37,556 bases of DNA, from assembly GCA_043797265.1 (NCBI GenBank), contig JAZDPV010000003.1, positions 1-37,556 on the forward strand, in the 5' to 3' direction. Position 1 is the stretch's first letter, and every line of letters starts with the position of its first letter. This document shows, one piece after another, positions 2,837-36,436 of this stretch. The position numbers and the translations under genes are program-made. The DNA is from an archaeon (GTDB lineage: Archaea; Nanobdellota; Nanobdellia; Pacearchaeales; GW2011-AR1). A model generated the notes under the pieces. It saw nothing but the letters and a program-made list of their open reading frames with translations. It was not told the origin of the DNA and did no database searches.

Positions 2837-2924
2837 CCAATCTTCAAGCCAAAACATTTTAAAAACATAACTATGTTAAAGGAAAGTTGGTAAGAAAACC
2901 TTGGTTTTCTTACAAAAACAATCA

Positions 2925-2995
2925 GCGCGAGTAGTATAGTGGCCGTATGTAAGCTTCCCAAGCTTGAGACCCGGGTTCGATTCCCGGCCCGCGCA
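2925..2995 (+). tRNA. tRNA-Gly (CCC)
   Basis: Acceptor GCGCGAG/CCCGCGC+A (one A.C mismatch), anticodon arm TAAGC-TTCCCAA-GCTTG, T-arm CCGGG-TTCGATT-CCCGG; CCA not encoded. Confidence 0.92.
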
Positions 2996-3096
2996 TAAAT
3001 CTGGAATCGAACCGTTCGATTCGAACAAAACGCTTTGAGAAAAACAAATTCTAAATATCTTTTTCGAAATGCATTTTGTGAGCAGGCCCGCGCATA
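2986..3096. repeat. 12-bp duplication of the tRNA-Gly 3' end flanking an ~87-bp palindrome-containing insert
   Basis: ggcccgcgcata at 2986-2997 and 3085-3096; gaatcgaa-ccg-ttcgattc hairpin between them. Confidence 0.65.
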
Positions 3097-3119
3097 CACT
3101 TCCTTTTATTTCTACAAAA

Positions 3120-6100
3120 TTATTTTGAAAGAACAACCTGTCCGGTAATATCACCCTTGCTTTCCCAAATCCCTTCTTCCACCCCATCATTCTCCACAAT
3201 ATTTTCTCCTTCACCAGCAGGCCCCTTATCTTCCCCTTCCCCCATCATCGAAAAAAACTTCTTAAATAATTTCTTCATATCACCCTCGGATTCAGACGGA
3301 ATAAATTTAGCAGAATTCACTATGCTTCTTATTTTGAAATACATTTTCGCCCCATTAACCATATCTTTTATTTTTTGCACTGGCTGCATTTTCCTGTCCC
3401 ACGGAGGACTCTCTATCATCTCCCCTCTCATTTCTTTTTCCTGCGAGTAAATTAACTCATAAATTTTTTCAAAATCAATTTCAGCAACCACATCTTTTTC
3501 ACCAACCTCTTCCGGAAGCATCGGCGTCATTTTTATTATATCATCCTCATTAACCTCCACATAAAGATTAAATATTATTTCATTGTTCTCTAAATTTTTA
3601 AACTGAACAACAGCATCCAAGCTCCCCCCATATTTTTTTGCTATTGTTCTTATCATCCTCATGAATTTTTCATCCTGCTTTATCATCTCCTTTTCTTCCG
3701 CCGTCATTCCCTCTTCATTCTTTCTTTCCATTTTATCCTCGGGAGAACCCGGAAACTCATGTTCCTTCATGGCTTTTTTCATTTCATATTCAATAAATTC
3801 CTTGGAAGGAAAAATCCACGTCTTCATATAAGGAGAAATAATAGTCACCTCCTCTTCCATCCCCGGCATTTTAACCACGTTCATCTCTTCCCAATATTCT
3901 AATTTCCCATATTCCGTTTCATATTTTATATTAATCAGATTTGGACTCATAACATCATTTATGTCATTTTTATCCAAGCATTTCATTCTAAATGCAAGTT
4001 CTCTTTGGCTATCAACATTTTTCCAATAAAGTTCAAAAATACCAGAAACAGCCTGCTCCCAATTTTCAGCCGAATTAGCGAGGTAATCTTCAAAAAACCA
4101 TTTTGCAAATTCCTGATTAAATCCTTTTTCAAATTCCTCCCTTTGTTTTATGAAATTTTGCAATTCAAACTTACACCAGTCAGCATTCCCACCAGAATAA
4201 TATTTATTTTTTAAAGGCTGTATTCTCTCAAAAGGATCTCCCCACCCACCAAACCAAATAAATCCTTCTGTTTTCCCCTTGGCTGTCCTGCAGTTTCCCC
4301 CCGCTTCAAATCCTCCCGCTTGTTCTTTAAACTCCTCTTTGTTTTCAAATTCTTTCCACCAGTCTTCTTCGCCCTTCATGCATTTTTCAACACAATCACT
4401 TTCCGGTTTGCAGGTTCCTTCACATTTTTTGCTTTCCTTGTCTATATCACATTCCATTTTTTCCCCACATTCCTCTCTAATACATTTTTCAACACATGGT
4501 CTATTGCAATCCTGACCACATCTTTGTTTTTGTTCCTCGTCCCTTCTCTCGTTTTCTTCTTCCCTCTCGTCGTCCCTATTATCTTCAAAATTTTCCATCG
4601 GCTGTTGATTATCTTGGGGCATTTGTTGTTCTTGTGGTTGATTTTGCCCGTCATCTTGGCTTGGTTCAGACTCGTCTGTTTCTTCCTGGCCCGTATCTTC
4701 TGATGTAGAGATTGTCTGTGTTTCTCCCTCCTCAACTTCAAAACCAGTAATGGCCGCCCCCGTAATTCTAATCCTCGACGACAATCCTCTAAAAAAAGAA
4801 AAAATAACATTTCCAGTTATGGGTTCCGAATTTTCATTTGTTGATTCAGTTTCTTGCGGAGAATTTTCTTCAGATTCAGAAGATGATTTCGAATCTTCAC
4901 CTATCGATTCTGCTTCCGGCTGAGAGCTTTCTTCTGTTTGTGTAGCCTCAGTTTCTTGGCCTGTTTGTTCTTCTTCAACTTCATTTGTATCAGACCCTTC
5001 TATAACATTTTCTTCTTCTCTAACTTCTATTCTTTCAGGAATTGTAACACATTGCCCATTACTGCAGACATCATTTTCTCCCCCGCAATCTGACAAACCA
5101 TCACACTGATTTCCAACAACCTCTTCAACGATAACTTCTTCTTCAACCCCTTCTCCTATTCCCTCTCCACTAACTCCTGCGCAAACAATCCCAGTATCCA
5201 CCCACAATCCATTTGAACACGAACTAAAAACAATACTTTCTCCCGATTCGCAATTCATAGTTTTTTGCGTTCCATCTGTGCACTCTTGTTCAGAACATTC
5301 GCTTAATTCTTTGACCTGGCATTTCCCCTCGACGCACTCTCCACTGCCACATAAAAATTTGCAATCTTCATTTACATTACAAGTTTGTTCTTCTATACAA
5401 ATTGGTTCTAGCGGGCAGTTGTTTTTATCTTTCCCCTTGAAAATAACTTTTCCAGAACATTCAATTGGCGCATGTTGAGGGCACAACGAGCAATCTTCTG
5501 CGCAAGTTTCAATTGTTTCATTCTCCTCGCAAACATGATTCCCGCATATAACTTCTTTTATTTTTATCTTCACTTCTTTTGCCTTGCACTCCCCCGCAAT
5601 GCAATAAAAATCAACTTCAACTTCTTCCGTCCCGTTCCCATCAACCACACTACTTATTCCCTTTCCGCAAATTTTCCCCCCGCACTGGTCATCATCGCAA
5701 TCTATTTTTTCATCCTGATTATCATCCTGATTATTATTGCATATCTCCTCTTCTTTCTCTCTAAATAATTCTATTAATCTTTTTTTGAATTCTACTTGCA
5801 CAAAAGAATATTCCTTTTTATCATAACCAGAAAATAAATTCAAATAGAATTGCTTTCTTTCTTCATAATTTTGTTTTCTTAATACCTTTTCCTGCTTCCT
5901 TCTTTCCTGGTCTTGCTTTATCCAATAATAAGGATCGTTCTTCTCTTCTAATTGTTTATTATTTTCTTTTATCATATTCCCCGTAATAAAACCCCCAGTT
6001 ATTACATTTTCAACTACATTATTATCGTCGGTATTTATCCCTCCATCTGTATTTTCAACAACAACATTATTTTGATTATTTTCTTTAGAAACCTTATTTT

Positions 6101-7226
6101 CAACTACTGTCCTGCCTTGAACATCACTTTGTTGCTCAATCTCTTTCCACACATCATTTGCCTTCTGATTCCAGGCTTCATTAATCGCCCAGATTTTCTG
6201 TTTTATATTATTAGCCTCTTTCCAATTTTGCTCTTCAGCGGCATTTTTATAAGAATCTAACAATCTAATAATTTCTGATTCATAGTACTCCACATCCTTA
6301 TCTTTAAACCGGTCAAAAGAAATCATTTCACCACCTTCTTCCATTTTTGGCATAGGTCCTCTCGTTTCCAACCATAAATCAAGATTAATCCAATTCCACT
6401 CACAATCGTCGCACATCTCCAATCTTGCAATCACCTCAAACTTATCTCCTTCATAAAAACTAATTTCCTGAACAATCATATTCTGATTCGGCATTTGACT
6501 TTCACTCCCAAAAACACTTGACATTAAATCCTCGCACTTGCCCTGGTTCTGTCTGAAATAACTTTCAAATGTTCTTTCTGCATTCACCGTTTCTTTAGCC
6601 AGAATCTCTGCGTTTGCCTGAGAACTATCTGAATTAAAATCTTCAGCCAAATTTTTTATCTCCTTTATTTTCCCTTCAATATCCAACTGCTCCTCAGGTT
6701 TTTTGAATTCTATCCAGAAATTAAGCCGATAAATCAAGTCCCCTTCCTCAACAGAATCCCCACCAAATTTCTCTCCCATTTCTTTATCGGTTCCATCACC
6801 AAATTGTTTCTTTGTAAAAATTGAAGGAAAAGCGTCCAAACTAATTTGTATTTTTTTTCCATCAAACACAATTTTTTTCCATACAGGGACGGAAAAATCA
6901 AGTTTTTTATCCTGTTCTTCTCCTTCTGCCCAAACCCATTTTGTTTCTTCAGTGGCTTCCCCCAAAACACTTTTAATCTGTTCCTGTTTCAAAACTCCCC
7001 CCATCTCCATTCCCGTCGCCCCTAAAATCTCATTCAAATTTTGTCTCGACGCAGAAATATAAACCAAAAGTTTTACATAATCAATATTCCCCGTCTCATA
7101 CTCTTCTGCATAATGTGTCACTTTTTTTATTTCAGATTCAGCAGAATTTGAAATCGCAAGAACATTATTCATTAAAAACAAAGATAAAACCAAACCAACC
7201 AGCACAACAAACACCACTCTCTTCAT
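3120..7226 (-). CDS. Large secreted/surface protein, acidic and Cys-rich (1368 aa)
   Basis: N-terminal signal peptide; Cys-rich modules (EICNNNQDDNQDEKIDCDDDQC, CGNHVCEENE..CAEDC); E/S/Q-rich linkers. Confidence 0.75.
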   Translation of the reverse strand: MKRVVFVVLVGLVLSLFLMNNVLAISNSAESEIKKVTHYAEEYETGNIDYVKLLVYISASRQNLNEILGATGMEMGGVLKQEQIKSVLGEATEETKWVWAEGEEQDKKLDFSVPVWKKIVFDGKKIQISLDAFPSIFTKKQFGDGTDKEMGEKFGGDSVEEGDLIYRLNFWIEFKKPEEQLDIEGKIKEIKNLAEDFNSDSSQANAEILAKETVNAERTFESYFRQNQGKCEDLMSSVFGSESQMPNQNMIVQEISFYEGDKFEVIARLEMCDDCEWNWINLDLWLETRGPMPKMEEGGEMISFDRFKDKDVEYYESEIIRLLDSYKNAAEEQNWKEANNIKQKIWAINEAWNQKANDVWKEIEQQSDVQGRTVVENKVSKENNQNNVVVENTDGGINTDDNNVVENVITGGFITGNMIKENNKQLEEKNDPYYWIKQDQERRKQEKVLRKQNYEERKQFYLNLFSGYDKKEYSFVQVEFKKRLIELFREKEEEICNNNQDDNQDEKIDCDDDQCGGKICGKGISSVVDGNGTEEVEVDFYCIAGECKAKEVKIKIKEVICGNHVCEENETIETCAEDCSLCPQHAPIECSGKVIFKGKDKNNCPLEPICIEEQTCNVNEDCKFLCGSGECVEGKCQVKELSECSEQECTDGTQKTMNCESGESIVFSSCSNGLWVDTGIVCAGVSGEGIGEGVEEEVIVEEVVGNQCDGLSDCGGENDVCSNGQCVTIPERIEVREEENVIEGSDTNEVEEEQTGQETEATQTEESSQPEAESIGEDSKSSSESEENSPQETESTNENSEPITGNVIFSFFRGLSSRIRITGAAITGFEVEEGETQTISTSEDTGQEETDESEPSQDDGQNQPQEQQMPQDNQQPMENFEDNRDDEREEENERRDEEQKQRCGQDCNRPCVEKCIREECGEKMECDIDKESKKCEGTCKPESDCVEKCMKGEEDWWKEFENKEEFKEQAGGFEAGGNCRTAKGKTEGFIWFGGWGDPFERIQPLKNKYYSGGNADWCKFELQNFIKQREEFEKGFNQEFAKWFFEDYLANSAENWEQAVSGIFELYWKNVDSQRELAFRMKCLDKNDINDVMSPNLINIKYETEYGKLEYWEEMNVVKMPGMEEEVTIISPYMKTWIFPSKEFIEYEMKKAMKEHEFPGSPEDKMERKNEEGMTAEEKEMIKQDEKFMRMIRTIAKKYGGSLDAVVQFKNLENNEIIFNLYVEVNEDDIIKMTPMLPEEVGEKDVVAEIDFEKIYELIYSQEKEMRGEMIESPPWDRKMQPVQKIKDMVNGAKMYFKIRSIVNSAKFIPSESEGDMKKLFKKFFSMMGEGEDKGPAGEGENIVENDGVEEGIWESKGDITGQVVLSK

Positions 7227-8818: not shown

Positions 8819-9655
8819 ATGATAGAATTAGGAACAATGCCAATAATTCAAGTGCCAGAACAAAAATTCGGCTTTTGTAGTCGCCCAGACTTAGCAGGAA
8901 AAACATTCTTCGAAGCATTCAAAGAAGAACTAAAACAATACGACCCAGAAGTCCTCAAGAAGGCATTAAACGGAGAATTTCACTTCGACAGCGACGGAAC
9001 ATTAAGGGGTTCAAATTTCCCCCTCGTCGTTTTAATGAATTATAAAAATCTCTTCCCAGAAGGCGAACATCTTTTATCAATCACAGAATTCGGTCAAGCA
9101 TTTAACAAAAACCCAGAAGCTTTCAAAGGAATATATGTAGACACTGGAATTGTGGCGAGGACAGCAAACGATTATTTTTCAGAAAATATATTAAAACAAA
9201 TAAAAGCAAGAGGAAAAACACCAATCCCAGAAGAACCAATAGTAATATCCAACACAGACCTAATACCAATACAAGATAAAAAATCCCGTTGCGGATTTGT
9301 CTATAAAATAAAAGACAGAGATGGCGAAGAATTAATACTAGCCCCAGCATACGGAACAGCAGAATCCACAACAAGATTCACATTCTATGATGCAAAAGGA
9401 ATTGCAATCCCATGTGAGAATGGAAAACACATAATTTATAAAAGAAATTCCGGCGTGTCGGGGGTTTGTTCCGACGGCCAGGTCGCGTTCTCGAACTACG
9501 GGCTTTTGGCGGACTCGTGCAGCGACGGCAGGGTAGCGGTGGGGGATGCCAATGTTCCGCAAAACATTATTGAAATAAAAAAGTTAGTTAAGCAAGAAGA
9601 AGGAAGAAGAGCGGCAACAAAAAAAGATTTGGAAGAAAGAATAGCAAAATTATAA
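8819..9655 (+). CDS. DGR target (variable) protein, probable C-type-lectin-like fold, 278 aa
   Basis: Contains the VR encoding SGVSGVCSDGQVAFSNYGLLADSCSDGRVA, followed by a ~38-aa charged helical tail. The fold is inferred from other DGR targets. Confidence 0.88.
   Translation: MIELGTMPIIQVPEQKFGFCSRPDLAGKTFFEAFKEELKQYDPEVLKKALNGEFHFDSDGTLRGSNFPLVVLMNYKNLFPEGEHLLSITEFGQAFNKNPEAFKGIYVDTGIVARTANDYFSENILKQIKARGKTPIPEEPIVISNTDLIPIQDKKSRCGFVYKIKDRDGEELILAPAYGTAESTTRFTFYDAKGIAIPCENGKHIIYKRNSGVSGVCSDGQVAFSNYGLLADSCSDGRVAVGDANVPQNIIEIKKLVKQEEGRRAATKKDLEERIAKL
9451..9537 (+). repeat. DGR variable repeat (VR)
   Basis: Ungapped 87-nt match to 9800-9886; 15 differences, all opposite TR adenines. Confidence 0.95.
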
Positions 9656-9679
9656 AAATATAAAATTACTCAAAAAATT

Positions 9680-9800
9680 CCTAACCTTGGAACTGGTTAG
9701 GCTACACGTTGATTAATTCACAATTCAATCACGACAATTAGTAGTTTACACGAATATTGAAATGATGGTGATTTACTTTCAATTAATCAACTATATAGTC
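9680..9800 (+). ncRNA. Putative structured 5' segment of the DGR template RNA
   Basis: cctaacc/ggttagg hairpin (9680-9701); gttgattaatt (9708-9718) pairs with aattaatcaac (9781-9791); inner ttcaat/attgaa; TATA-like ttataaaa at 9650-9657. Confidence 0.5.
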
Positions 9801-9886
9801 GGCGTGTCGAGGGTTTATTCCAACGGCCAGGACGCGAACTCGAACAACGAGCATTTAGCGAACTCGAACAGCGACGGCAGAATAGC
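9800..9886 (+). repeat. DGR template repeat (TR)
   Basis: Non-coding copy of the VR with 25 adenines and six AAC codons in the VR frame (GVSRVYSNGQDANSNNEHLANSNSDGRIA); ends 22 nt before the RT start. Confidence 0.95.
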
Positions 9887-9908
9887 TTAATAATCCAGGG
9901 TTATATTT

Positions 9909-10928
9909 ATGAAAACTTACAAAAACATCTATTACAAAATTTACAAATGGGAAAATCTAGTTCTCGCTTTCAGAAAAGCGAGAAAAGGAAAAACAAAAAA
10001 AGATTACGTAAAAAAATTCGAGGAAAACTTAATAGAAAACCTGCAACAACTTCAATTCGAACTAATGACTCAAACCTACAAACCAAAACCACTAAAAACA
10101 TTTATACTTCGCGACCCGAAAACCCGCAAAATATCCAAATCACATTTCAGAGACAGAATTATTCATCACGCACTTTGCAACATAATAGAACCAATCTTCC
10201 AAAAAACTTTCATTCACGATTCTTGCGCAAACCAAAAAAGAAAAGGCAATATTTTCGCAATAAAAAGATTCGACAAATTTAAGAAAAAAGTTTCAAGAAA
10301 CGGGAAACAAAAGGGATGGTTCAACAAAAACCAAGTTAAGGGATATTGTCTAAAAGCAGACATAAAACATTATTTCGAAGAAGTTAACCAAGAAATATTA
10401 ATCAATATAATCAACAAAAAAATAAAAGACAAAAACACAATGTCTTTAATTACAAAAATTATAAAAAATTATAAAAATAAACAAAAAGGCATGCCCCTCG
10501 GAAATTTTACAAGTCAATTCTTCGCAAATATTTACCTCAACGAACTTGATTATTTTACAAAACAAAACCTAAAAACAAAATATTATATAAGATACGTCGA
10601 TGATTTCATAATTTTACATTCAAGTAATTCACAATTAATTATATGGAAAAGAGAAATTAAAATATTCTTAAAGAAAAATCTAAACCTTCAACTTCATCCT
10701 CAAAAATCCCGAATCATTAAATTATCTAACGGAATAGATTTTGTCGGATTTAGAATTTTTTATTATACTAAATTATTAAGAAAAAGGAATATAAGAAAAA
10801 TGCAAAACACAATAAAACAATATAAAAACGGCAAAATAACAAAAAATAAATTAAACGAAATTTATCAAGGTTGGTCAGCTTATGCAAAATGGGCAAATCC
10901 TTTTAAACTTCAAATGAATTTAATATAA
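9909..10928 (+). CDS. DGR-type reverse transcriptase
   Basis: FRDRIIHHAL, KADIKHYF, GMPLGNFTSQFFANIYLNELD (DGR-type GNxTSQ), YIRYVDDF, GIDFVGF; 339 aa with no maturase X/endonuclease extension. Confidence 0.95.
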   Translation: MKTYKNIYYKIYKWENLVLAFRKARKGKTKKDYVKKFEENLIENLQQLQFELMTQTYKPKPLKTFILRDPKTRKISKSHFRDRIIHHALCNIIEPIFQKTFIHDSCANQKRKGNIFAIKRFDKFKKKVSRNGKQKGWFNKNQVKGYCLKADIKHYFEEVNQEILINIINKKIKDKNTMSLITKIIKNYKNKQKGMPLGNFTSQFFANIYLNELDYFTKQNLKTKYYIRYVDDFIILHSSNSQLIIWKREIKIFLKKNLNLQLHPQKSRIIKLSNGIDFVGFRIFYYTKLLRKRNIRKMQNTIKQYKNGKITKNKLNEIYQGWSAYAKWANPFKLQMNLI

Positions 10929-30437: not shown

Positions 30438-30686
30438 ATGATAATCGGCATTCTCCTCGGCATAAGCGCCTCAATCTCGCTAACATCGCTCATAATAATT
30501 ATCACAACAGCGACGGGGCTAATCAAAAAAAACCTCGCAACCGGCGCGGCCATCGGCACAACCACAACAATATCCTACGCATCAATCACCCTCATAACCT
30601 CTCTAATCGCCACCTTCCTCCTGATACTAATTCTCAAAAAATCAATCAAAGATAAATCCCATCCTCATCTCAAGCACACCATATAG
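30438..30686 (+). CDS. Small two-TM membrane protein
   Basis: 82 aa with two hydrophobic stretches. Confidence 0.5.
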   Translation: MIIGILLGISASISLTSLIIIITTATGLIKKNLATGAAIGTTTTISYASITLITSLIATFLLILILKKSIKDKSHPHLKHTI

Positions 30687-30913
30687 TGCACAATACATTT
30701 CAAATAAAAAAATTTACAAATAATAAACCTTCGCCTTCCCGCTGTCTTTGGATTTGATTTTACCGACGTCAACCAAGCAGCGAAGATAACCCAACAAAAC
30801 CGCCCGATTAATTTCCGGCAAAGCCACGGCAATCTCCTTCTGGGTGCACGGCTCTCCCTTCTTTCCCAAAAAAGAAACAATCTTCTCACATAGCATACCA
30901 TATAATGCACAAT
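30673..30913. repeat. 22-bp direct repeat flanking the small wHTH gene
   Basis: agcacaccatatagtgcacaat (30673-30694) versus agcataccatataatgcacaat (30892-30913), 20/22 identical. Confidence 0.7.
30714..30896 (-). CDS. Small winged-HTH protein (60 aa)
   Basis: TQKEIAVALPEINRAVLLGYLRCLVDVGKIKSKDSGKAKVYYL has the helix-turn-helix-wing pattern. Confidence 0.7.
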   Translation of the reverse strand: MLCEKIVSFLGKKGEPCTQKEIAVALPEINRAVLLGYLRCLVDVGKIKSKDSGKAKVYYL

Positions 30914-30945
30914 GCCCTTTAAAAATTTTACGAAAAATAAAAATG

Positions 30946-30973
30946 CCCTGGGTTTCCTTTCGAAAACCCAGGG
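30946..30973 (-). terminator. Strong hairpin followed by a T-run on the minus strand (terminator-like)
   Basis: ccctgggttt/aaacccaggg 10-bp stem; the minus strand continues cattttta. Confidence 0.5.
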
Positions 30974-30999
30974 TGGAGGAGGGTGATGAAAAGTCAGCA

Positions 31000-31385
31000 A
31001 AAAGAAAGCCCCATGAAAGAGGGAGCTACTTCGAAACTCTCCACAGGGCTTTCTTTTGGTCGTGCAGCGTCGGTTCTCCAGCAATTCCTTTTACTGATTG
31101 GTGTCTCCCACCGAGAACAAAACCGCTACACGAACCAACCCACCTTGACTAACTCACAGCGCTCCATCAACCATCTAATTTCACGAACCCGACGCTATCT
31201 TATTTCCCCGTTACATTATAATAACAAAGAAAGCCCCACGAAGGAGGTTCCATGAGGCTTTCTGGGTGTAGCACGCTGTTTCATTTCGTCAACGGATACA
31301 ATGTCTTTCGTAGATGTTCCCGCCACCGACAACAACACTGCTACACAACCAACCCTCTGTAAGTCAACTCTCACAGAGTTCGCTC
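31000..31385 (-). ncRNA. Two tandem ~160-nt structured modules (31001-31164, 31226-31385), putative ncRNA
   Basis: Shared blocks aaagaaagccccaYgaa, ggctttct, gtgYagc, caccga, gctacac-aaccaaccc, ctcacag, cgctc; same two-domain pairing pattern; G.U pairs work only on the minus strand. Confidence 0.6.
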
Positions 31386-31987
31386 GTCTATTGTCTGTCT
31401 TCTTCTTTACATTCGACGAACTTGGTCGGAACCACTTCTCCTAAACAATAGTAGGCGGACCATGGCCAACTCTCCTCATCTGAAGGTTAGTCGAATCCAC
31501 ACAGCACCTTCGCAAAAAACAGGTGCACACTTTTTCATTGCCCCGCGCTACCGAAAACACTGCGGGCGCCTTTCACCAAAGCCAACATTTCCAGACCATC
31601 CATCGTTCCAACCCAATCGCATCAATCCCTTTACCAGGTTTGGCAGGAATATAATCTTCTTCTCCTTACACGTCAATCCCCTAAGATTTAAAACGCAGGG
31701 AAGAGTCATATCATTCCTCTCGTCCGATGCCGGTCGGGTTGAATCACAGCGACGATAAACGGTCACACCAGCCATTCCCGCCACATTTTCTCATGCAGCA
31801 AAAACAGCACGACGAGAACCCAACTCTCCACCTCCTTTCACTTCCAAACATCTTCTAAACATGAACGTTCACGAATTACCGACAATACGCCTTTTCTATA
31901 CGCATCACCTCCTTTCACAAATGGGTTTGCGCGAAATAAGACGTATTCCAACCAAAAATCAAAGACACCCCCAACTAAAGAAATCAT

Positions 31988-32072
31988 TATCACAATTTCT
32001 GGAGGGTCGCTATATGTAGTCGTTAGTTCAAAGAGCAGAGCTCGATGTGATACGCCAAAGGCAGTTAATGTA
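31988..32072 (-). ncRNA. Structured 5' leader/ncRNA motif, copy A
   Basis: Homologous to 33403-33488; begins about 23 nt downstream of a TATA box (32095-32102). Confidence 0.65.
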
Positions 32073-32156
32073 TAATAAAAATAGGCGTTTCAACTTTAAA
32101 AATATTTGTATGATGACACCCTGCCCATCCAAAGATGAAAGCAGGGGCAATCGGAG

Positions 32157-33261: not shown

Positions 33262-33402
33262 CTCGCGCCTCTCTTTCTTTATCGAACTTATTCCAACCTA
33301 TTCCGCCAAAACTCACACGAGTCTCAAACACCCAACTATAAAAATCTCGAAATCCCGTCGACAAACAAGTTATTCTAACTTATTCCGGGTCCGCTTCAAC
33401 TT

Positions 33403-33488
33403 ACCGCAATCTCTGGAGTGTCAATACGAAGTCGTCAAAGTTCAAAGCAACAAAGTTGCGATGCGGTGCCAAAGGCCAAGTTAATGTA
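33403..33488 (-). ncRNA. Structured 5' leader/ncRNA motif, copy B
   Basis: Homologous to 31988-32072 with compensatory stems; BRE-TATA gaaaaggtttttata about 21 nt upstream on the minus strand. Confidence 0.65.
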
Positions 33489-33564
33489 AAACTCACAGAA
33501 AATCATACTATAAAAACCTTTTCATTGTAGTTATTATAAAGTGACAGACAACTCCGCCAAATCA

Positions 33565-33665
33565 TCTACCGAAACGCAAAGCATTTCGTTCTACCAAAAA
33601 TGCTTCGCATTTTTGTTCTCCCAGAAAATCAAAGATTTTCTGTTCTACCGACAAAGTCGTTCTAC
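33565..33665. repeat. Array of four small hairpins separated by TTCTAC/TTCTCC
   Basis: cgaaacgc-aaa-gcatttcg, caaaaatgc-ttc-gcatttttg, cagaaaatc-aaa-gattttctg, cgac-aaa-gtcg. Confidence 0.8.
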
Positions 33666-35583: not shown

Positions 35584-35997
35584 TTATTTTTCAAACTCTT
35601 TAATAACTTTCTTAAAATCCTCAATCCCTTCTTTTATCATTTCAAACGCTTGTTTATCGTCGACCTCGCCATATCGATGAACCAAAATATTTCTAAACCC
35701 TCTCATCTTCCTCACTAACTCCGCACTCTCCCCAGACAACTTCCCATTCTCCTCCAAATTATCTATTGAGTTCCCCTCGTCCTCTGGAATCCCAAAACCA
35801 AAATCTGAATTAACTATATTACAAATATCCAAAATCAATTCTATCGACGACTCAATCCGTTTGTATATCCCGTCCTTCTTCAATCCCATCTTCTTAAATT
35901 CTCCAAAACTTTTCGGCAAACCCTCTCGCAAAATTTCCAAATTATCAACTATCCCGACAATTTTCTTATCAATCAAATCTTTCCTCAACCCAGACAT
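35584..35997 (-). CDS. hepT: HepT-like HEPN ribonuclease toxin (DUF86)
   Basis: RX4HXY motif GFRNILVHRYGEVD. Confidence 0.9.
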   Translation of the reverse strand: MSGLRKDLIDKKIVGIVDNLEILREGLPKSFGEFKKMGLKKDGIYKRIESSIELILDICNIVNSDFGFGIPEDEGNSIDNLEENGKLSGESAELVRKMRGFRNILVHRYGEVDDKQAFEMIKEGIEDFKKVIKEFEK

Positions 35998-36362
35998 ACT
36001 TCCTTCCTCCTCTCGACGTAATCATCAACATACTTCTTGAAATCTCCAAATCTTCTCAGCGTCTCGCAAGCAACATCATAAACAAACGTCCCTTCAGAAA
36101 AATACAAAAGCTTCCCTTTCAAAACATCCGCTCTCAAATACAACGGCAAGTCCTGAAAAATTTTCACATCATATTTGTCCCCCAACTTCCCCATCACCTT
36201 AACTCTAAAATCAAATCGTTCTTTCTCGCTCCCATCATAATAAACAGCCAAATCCACGTCGGAAAATTTATTGTTTTTCTCCGTCGCCATACTCCCAAAT
36301 AAAAAAACAAACTTCACTCTACCCCCGCCAATCTTCTTAATTTTCTCAATAACTTCTTCCAT
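35985..36362 (-). CDS. mntA: MntA-like minimal nucleotidyltransferase antitoxin
   Basis: FLFGSMA...SDVDLAV (GSX10DXD); overlaps the downstream HEPN gene. Confidence 0.9.
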   Translation of the reverse strand: MEEVIEKIKKIGGGRVKFVFLFGSMATEKNNKFSDVDLAVYYDGSEKERFDFRVKVMGKLGDKYDVKIFQDLPLYLRADVLKGKLLYFSEGTFVYDVACETLRRFGDFKKYVDDYVERRKEVCLG

Positions 36363-36436
36363 AAACACCACAACCAAGCGCAAATTATAAACTTTTCCAT
36401 CAACAATTTTATAAACATCAAATTTCTAATCCTTGA

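Follow-up and report, generated by a model that had tools for sequence, protein, structure and literature searches.

The closest described counterparts of the locus analyzed here are the cuckoo, CcsR1-4 and alpha-r14 small RNAs of Alphaproteobacteria, which, in the parts of the two sources drawn on here, comprise two to four adjacent short hairpin modules with variable stems and a CCUCCUCCC anti-Shine-Dalgarno (anti-SD) motif in each loop (PMC4615179, PMC8034643). Among archaea, sRNA162 of Methanosarcina mazei is described, in the portion of the source used, as a trans-acting small RNA (PMC3510493). We compared these RNAs with an array of three hairpin units on the minus strand of an archaeal contig, within a window (the whole stretch of DNA analyzed) of 37,556 nt. 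Intrinsic terminators and type I toxin-antitoxin mRNAs also combine a GC-rich hairpin and U-run with anti-SD segments near the 3' end, and the array shares these features with them. Unlike type I systems, it has no conserved toxin ORF or antisense gene that we could find; an antitoxin-like role had been suggested by a first-pass annotation made from the sequence alone. Many terminators share the AAGCC...GGCTT hairpin base, which is weak evidence of kinship for modules 1 and 2.

The array resembles the cuckoo/CcsR RNAs, as far as the cited parts of their descriptions go, in its tandem modules, variable stems, conserved anti-SD CU motif, varying module number and putative processing from one precursor. 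It differs in the motif itself, which is not CCUCCUCCC (the loop of module 1 reads ACCUCC, module 2 has CUCCCUCUUUC and the tract of unit 3 lies outside the loop), and in the motif's position 5' of or within a terminator-like hairpin instead of in each loop of two to four short hairpins. No DUF1127 gene was found adjoining the array, there is no Rfam match and the host is an archaeon. The layout of three tandem units is comparable, but here it includes extra domains of 80-90 nt and spacers. Because the motif and Rfam comparisons failed, we do not count the array as a member of the cuckoo family; it is an uncatalogued array, a variant of anti-SD modular small RNAs, and its folds and tracts are real. 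RNAs of the sRNA162 type set a precedent, in what we drew from their description, for small RNAs directed at ribosome-binding sites (RBSs) and for processed forms in archaea, but they are single native genes with defined targets, whereas the present units form tandem arrays on a bacterial scaffold. The study of sRNA162 reportedly deals with RBS masking.

The window (contig C3) belongs to a 625-kb genome, probably of a Woesearchaeota- or Pacearchaeota-like DPANN archaeon, that encodes archaeal FEN1 and a type II methionine aminopeptidase (both above profile cut-offs), PolB, CDC48 and Lsm. The array sits in a variable island bordered by a gene for a 227-aa membrane protein and a Na/Ca exchanger. 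Read along the minus strand, a TATA box is followed by leader A, ~630 nt of non-coding tract, modules 1 and 2, unit 3, a further TATA box and the gene for a 60-aa winged-helix (wHTH) protein, the three hairpin units forming the 3' end of a non-coding tract of about 1.1-1.25 kb (Table 1). Tandem attenuators had been offered as one reading of the units; no gene directly downstream is under attenuator control, and the wHTH gene has its own TATA box. Leader copies follow TATA boxes twice in the window (31985-32070 and 33400-33490), and relatives have further copies; a hairpin and the TTTGAAC behind it are reminiscent of bacterial boxA. A near-palindromic site at 30900-30913 and 30680-30693, on either side of the wHTH gene and kept in relatives, is likely an operator. 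Matches to a sigma-70-like promoter number 12 in the archaeal island between 30600 and 33700 (2.4 expected), and a hairpin-rich 130-nt segment at 33534-33663 has a copy at 75% identity on contig C7. Elsewhere in the window are a HepT-like ribonuclease and nucleotidyltransferase gene pair, likely a toxin-antitoxin module (35584-36383), and a locus resembling a diversity-generating retroelement (8819-10928), with a reverse transcriptase, an 87-nt repeat pair (9451-9537 and 9800-9886, 83%) and an RT-16 RNA match.

Table 1 Features of the array and its surroundings, in order of transcription on the minus strand
Feature	Positions	Strand	Basis or interpretation
TATA-like box (32102-32094) and leader copy A	31985-32102	-	Putative start of the non-coding transcript
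Non-coding tract of low conservation; contains two GAAAGGAGG motifs (31916, 31839) and, at 31544-31530, a short block that is conserved	31359-31984	-	Comparison with relatives
Module 1, 5' domain: one long hairpin with interruptions; closing stem GTGTAGCA (31346-31339) / TGCTACAC (31273-31266)	31264-31350	-	Predicted fold
Module 1, terminator-like hairpin: 15 pairs, 6-nt loop ACCUCC (ACCUCCUU at 31248-31241, anti-SD core), then U-rich run	31228-31263	-	
GTTATTAT after the module 1 U-run	31218-31225	-	Putative unit junction or processing site
Module 2, 5' domain: 31136-31124 / 31069-31058 close a predicted three-way junction	31058-31136	-	
Module 2, terminator-like hairpin: CU tract (CUCCCUCUUUC) at 31025-31015, U-run	31003-31054	-	
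Unit 3, CU tract: 19 nt, unpaired, anti-SD plus anti-AUG	30975-30993	-	Matches the invariant tract of the Phycisphaerae/phage element exactly
Third hairpin (12 pairs) and U-run	30935-30973	-	Keeps the structure of the Phycisphaerae hairpin in an unrelated sequence
Downstream boundary: leaderless winged-helix gene (60 aa) with a TATA-like box and a near-palindromic operator-like site	30714-30925	-	Gene marks the locus in relatives

Module 1 (31350-31228, ~123 nt) and module 2 (31136-31003, ~134 nt) lie 215 nt apart from start to start and are thus shorter than the ~160 nt initially assigned to them. That they are a tandem pair of diverged copies is borne out by a 34-nt 5' arm at 88% identity (E 0.001 within the genome), although with a 1-nt indel between the two arms, and by 84 identical columns in an alignment of 160. 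Both closing stems, both AGAAAGCC...GGCTTTCT hairpins with their T-runs and the third hairpin at 30946-30973 lie where the first-pass annotation had placed them. Its contrast between conserved closing stems and variable interiors was right about the stems; the conserved block is wider, taking in the full 34-nt 5' arm and the hairpin base. The branched domain it had described in each copy is predicted for the lower-coordinate one (module 2), and module 1 forms one long interrupted hairpin.

Folding and aligning both units, which had been proposed as a check, supports structured RNA on the minus strand: region 30930-31420 folds with a z-score of -7.4 (0 of 100 shuffles equally good), and modules 1 and 2 individually give -4.0 and -5.2 on the minus strand against -2.2 and -4.0 on the plus strand. 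These scores, the T-runs and the orientation of the third unit in the 121 homologues listed favor the strand that had earlier been deduced from G.U pairs; taken by themselves, G.U counts carry little weight, since G and T are abundant along the entire minus strand (most of the window has a GC skew of about -0.3 to -0.5). Terminator-like hairpins of the module type are not unique in the genome, since a genome-wide scan gave 46 hairpins, with the modules ranking 4 and 13 (unit 3 failed the scan's filter). The modules themselves occur in two copies only, which speaks against the decayed IS or MITE ends that the annotation had weighed against its own reading. Each of the three units contains a CU-rich anti-SD tract, a feature that had escaped the annotation, as had the identity of unit 3. 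The GTTATTAT motif recurs behind hairpins of related archaeal arrays and stands directly 5' of the CU tract in 28 of the 121 genome matches listed (2.5 expected).

The tract of unit 3 links the array to an element of planctomycetes and their phages. Searching genomes with it returned at least 121 matches; among those listed, 113 are titled Planctomycetota, and the rest Woesearchaeota (two, one duplicating a counted locus), Nealsonbacteria (two), Saccharibacteria (two), Aegiribacteria (one) or without taxon (one). The same hairpin base is present in 117 of the 121 matches listed, and a promoter-like TAAAG-N17/18-CGAT motif, presumably sigma-28-like, lies upstream of 93 of 119 genome copies listed (0.6 expected). 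In Phycisphaerae the element is usually divergent from panB, has this motif ~58 nt upstream, contains no ORF and is present in one to three copies per genome in five genomes. Its hairpin covaries, with 36 double changes in 24 non-archaeal copies (0 of 500 shuffles). An own promoter-like motif and the lack of an ORF, in a position divergent from panB, fit a stand-alone RNA, and the Phycisphaerae element looks like a stand-alone RNA gene, a predicted small RNA. We found no description of it, or of such archaeal arrays, in listings of the open-access literature.

Among phages, an 18-mer of the tract is present in 54 loci representing 48 distinct contexts, where conservation extends beyond the query: position -1 is G in 42, and the following positions are C, G, A and A in 46, 38, 40 and 41. 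By inspection, all but two phage copies have a hairpin and U-run, and the promoter-like motif is rare (1 of 48, with a 13-17 spacer test). In the phage loci (L047-L100) the tract precedes hairpins of unrelated sequence, often right behind a stop codon, and one contig has two copies.

Unit 3 as a whole (30993-30935) has the invariant 19-nt tract of this element and, directly 3' of it, a hairpin with U-run. It differs from the Phycisphaerae element in its hairpin sequence, in the two extra modules ahead of it and in its archaeal TATA box; four related archaeal loci keep the hairpin sequence as well. Under a model built from 24 phage and planctomycete copies, with archaeal copies left out, the window unit scores 43 bits and 4 of 49 genomes of the genus have a strong match, noise reaching at most 21 bits in 149 other genomes of the class. 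The tract part of this match is partly circular, because the training copies were found with that tract; independent of the query are the hairpin sequence kept in four relatives (G023, G061, L035 and L281) and a consensus G restored in a close relative. A longer unit-3 pattern had no match in 401 genomes of a phylum draw, and six one-mismatch tract matches in the genus were dropped because they lacked a hairpin with U-run or resembled ordinary gene starts. The upstream TAAAG-N17/18-CGAT motif is absent from all six archaeal tracts checked, and the window copy also lacks the panB context. As judged from sequence and predicted fold, unit 3 belongs to the Phycisphaerae element; modules 1 and 2 match neither its tract nor the unit-3 model.

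The wHTH gene that marks the locus is present in 7 of the 49 genus genomes and in 16 metagenome loci, several of which duplicate those genomes; none was found in viral contigs. The leader-led tracts before it barely align between species and end in hairpins with U-runs: all eight tracts examined finish with one to four of them, and in all eight at least one hairpin contains a CU-rich stretch or has one on its 5' side. The number of units in relatives ranges from one to three (two each in L035 and G044). Against this background the 19-mer is exact in G023, G061, G044, L035 and L281, although the remaining tract barely aligns and the flanking genes of species with the exact 19-mer are only 72-83% identical. 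Promoter and leader aside, the 19-nt tract before hairpin 3 is the longest exact block common to the window's tract and those of G023, G061, L035 and L281. The Phycisphaerae-type hairpin of these four is replaced by unrelated hairpins in the window and G044, with the tract retained. Unit 3, the comparison indicates, has been retained across archaeal species while the surrounding sequence turned over.

The largest array lies in L281 (G1041:C38, about 2900-7000), a non-coding island of ~4 kb in which 22 overlapping hairpin calls (~19 distinct) fall on one strand and 3 on the other; many of its hairpins have the Phycisphaerae-type stem, and three have the tract or part of it. The contig carries archaeal GatE, and its genome is outside the 49 genus genomes. 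This is the constant-scaffold array that the first-pass annotation had guessed when it proposed small RNAs with a constant scaffold and guide-like interiors downstream of a leader. The scaffold half of that proposal stands, on the arrays of relatives and the ~19 hairpins of L281; the guide-like interior found no support in the genomes and collections searched. Very short Lys-rich ORFs lie near the arrays of relatives (L017 1475-1520, L030 2260-2300, L035 290-320 and L281 near 3350-3460), with no clear counterpart in the window.

Planctomycete-like genes accompany the tract in some relatives. A 400-aa gene in the island of G023 and G061 has 193 homologues; among the 120 listed, the six that have taxon names all belong to Planctomycetota or Sedimentisphaerales (39-47% identity), and the gene is also present in two of five Phycisphaerae genomes, with similar SD-bearing spacers. 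The 404-aa island protein of G056 has two homologues, and for the 186-aa island protein of the window itself there is a single database homologue and no usable match in Atlas. A two-gene block encoding secreted-looking proteins, the first with planctomycete homologues, occupies the same island in L016 (6378-8340), L017 (2445-4450) and L036 (1787-3853). Four CPR-titled loci are among the matches listed, and CPR-titled contigs with the element include L282 (1782-2940), L283 (6658-7813) and L176; on one such contig, for which mis-binning is possible, a lipoprotein near the tract shares 62-64% identity with proteins of two Phycisphaerae genomes. The CU tract is the sole planctomycete link found in the window's own genome. 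Comparing its ORFs with 545 kb of planctomycete DNA gave 16 matches, and since none exceeds 46% identity, no wider gene transfer is shown.

Modules 1 and 2 have a much narrower distribution. A model of both found one homologue, at the syntenic place in the sister species G056 (E 9e-4 in 124 kb), and no match in the 48 other genomes of the genus under stricter filters, in four Phycisphaerae genomes or in G1041. Such a search across archaeal genomes had been recommended in the annotation. BLAST with the modules against 41 relatives and 49 genus genomes matched only the unit 3 tract, leader, wHTH and island genes, and 13 weak matches in 201 genomes of the Phycisphaerae order were judged to be chance (scattered, mostly in coding frames; 12 of 13 re-aligned). 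In five Phycisphaerae genomes a loop-display pattern did not exceed controls, the viral collection did not contain it, and module patterns had no match in viral contigs. Rfam gave no match for the array at gathering score or below E 0.7, and nothing relevant on the window, the region or 36 homologous loci.

A close relative was seen at a depth of about 3 in run X4. Its module 1 keeps the CU tract with a wobble-compatible change, and its module 2 hairpin loop holds CCUCCUUCG, as in module 1, which gives both module loops a CU tract. The module 2 closing stem has a C-G to U.G change that keeps pairing and one other change that breaks an inner pair; hairpin 3 has a compensatory C-G to U-A double change, and the family-consensus G follows the unit 3 tract.

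The array's complements were sought at gene starts. Within SD windows, for which start sites were called crudely, enrichment of the module 1 loop complement is 3.4-fold for a sample of a Phycisphaerae genome (22 genes of 293, p 3e-5) and 1.8-fold for the own genome (29 genes of 501, p 7e-3); the values are 1.9 and 1.1 (that is, none in the own genome) for module 2 and 1.8 and 1.6 for unit 3, and complements of arms and interiors mostly show no such enrichment. Under a stricter energy test with a -12 kcal/mol cut-off, for which only fractions and motif counts were used in the Phycisphaerae sample, unit 3 has an RBS preference in Phycisphaerae only and the module loops have none in either genome. 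The Phycisphaerae sample has a clear enrichment of SD words and the archaeon, which seldom uses SD sequences (GGAGG before 28 of 556 genes), a weak one. For a specific target, the best duplexes with start regions of the own genome were not clearly above shuffled seeds. The annotation had also called for complements of the module interiors, and searches of the own genome, of 201 genomes of the Phycisphaerae order, and of phage and plasmid collections gave neither a complementary target nor a homologue. An RNA library contains two exact contigs in 5.4 kb, both in the tract, at 31210-31376 (over module 1) and 31598-31741; because they are shallow (depth 2.7-3.8), unstranded, possibly DNA, and from a run selected because it contains this stretch, they hint only weakly at transcription, and missing cover on flanking genes is not counted as evidence.

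With moderate confidence, we propose that the units form a cuckoo-like array of small RNAs directed against RBSs and acquired in part from Phycisphaerae, in which the constant CU tract and not the interior is likely the functional part. Transcription would start at the TATA box of leader A, and the units would be released by termination or by cleavage at the U-runs, then, like cuckoo RNAs, base-pair with RBSs and prevent translation. Unit 3 may have come from Phycisphaerae or their phages, and modules 1 and 2 may have arisen by local duplication, with the tract moving into the hairpin. The RNAs could target mRNAs of a bacterial partner or SD-led genes in the archaeon's own island.

Alternatively, the units could be stacked terminators or 3'-protective stems that end and stabilize the island transcript and insulate the wHTH promoter, the CU tract being a protein-binding or termination signal. 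The many phage copies with the tract just past a stop codon, before a terminator and between co-oriented genes, the U-run hairpins closing all eight archaeal tracts, the invariance of the tract whatever the neighboring genes and the empty target searches would all fit. We nevertheless consider this unlikely: the Phycisphaerae element has its own upstream promoter-like motif, no ORF and a position divergent from panB, the ~19 hairpins of L281 are more than termination needs, and the 80-90-nt folded domains of modules 1 and 2 are not explained by it.

That the array is decaying, functionless DNA from Phycisphaerae or phages, with modules 1 and 2 a chance duplication of a captured terminator region, would account for its patchy presence (strong in 4 of 49 genus genomes, the longer pattern in none of the phylum draw) at a hypervariable locus with foreign-looking genes. 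Decay is a distinctly improbable explanation of a 19-mer that stays exact between species with such divergent flanking genes, of unrelated hairpins swapped in around a retained tract in the window and G044, of the compensatory change in X4 and of amplification in L035 and L281.

More doubtful still is a type I toxin-antitoxin-like or fold-back mRNA, in which anti-SD tracts pair in cis with the SDs of short ORFs or an opposite-strand mini-ORF is active. For the two GAAAGGAGG motifs upstream in the tract, predicted duplexes have energies of -14 to -20 kcal/mol, an SD and an ATG can be read on the opposite strand at both unit 3 and module 1, and short Lys-rich ORFs recur in relatives; yet the cis duplexes were no better than shuffled seeds in the five tracts tested, the opposite-strand ORF varies from 3 to 150 codons among phage copies (90 in the window), no conserved hydrophobic peptide or sequestered-SD ORF was found and the 5' arms differ by a 1-nt indel. 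We regard as highly improbable that the modules are DNA-level elements (MITE/IS ends or attC-like cassette sites) or guide RNAs with variable spacers, despite gene content that differs between species at the locus, given two undispersed copies in 625 kb, no transposase or nuclease family among adjacent ORFs, folding that favors one strand with G.U pairs, ends that by inspection lack the AAC...GTT arrangement (which we take to be the attC motif), interiors unmatched in the own genome, the 201 genomes of one bacterial order and two record collections, and no effector gene nearby.

The distribution of the element bears on the partners of these archaea. Hosts are unknown for most Woesearchaeota- and Pacearchaeota-like archaea, and, in the portions of the two sources cited, bacterial prey or hosts are suggested from gene content and co-occurrence, some DPANN are suggested to attack bacteria (PMC9723730, PMC12352652), and Planctomycetes are among the correlated taxa (PMC9723730). 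A planctomycete-specific element, letter-perfect in several small archaea, CPR-titled contigs and phages, and near planctomycete-like genes, offers a concrete candidate partner, and the array may point to a Phycisphaerae bacterium in that role. Quite speculatively, these archaea could live on Phycisphaerae and have captured, amplified and diversified a host small-RNA scaffold into anti-RBS arrays that act on host translation; such a cross-domain RNA effector would be shared, by convergence, with phages of Phycisphaerae and some CPR bacteria. The array presents a bacterial small-RNA scaffold that is apparently under selection and amplified in archaea.
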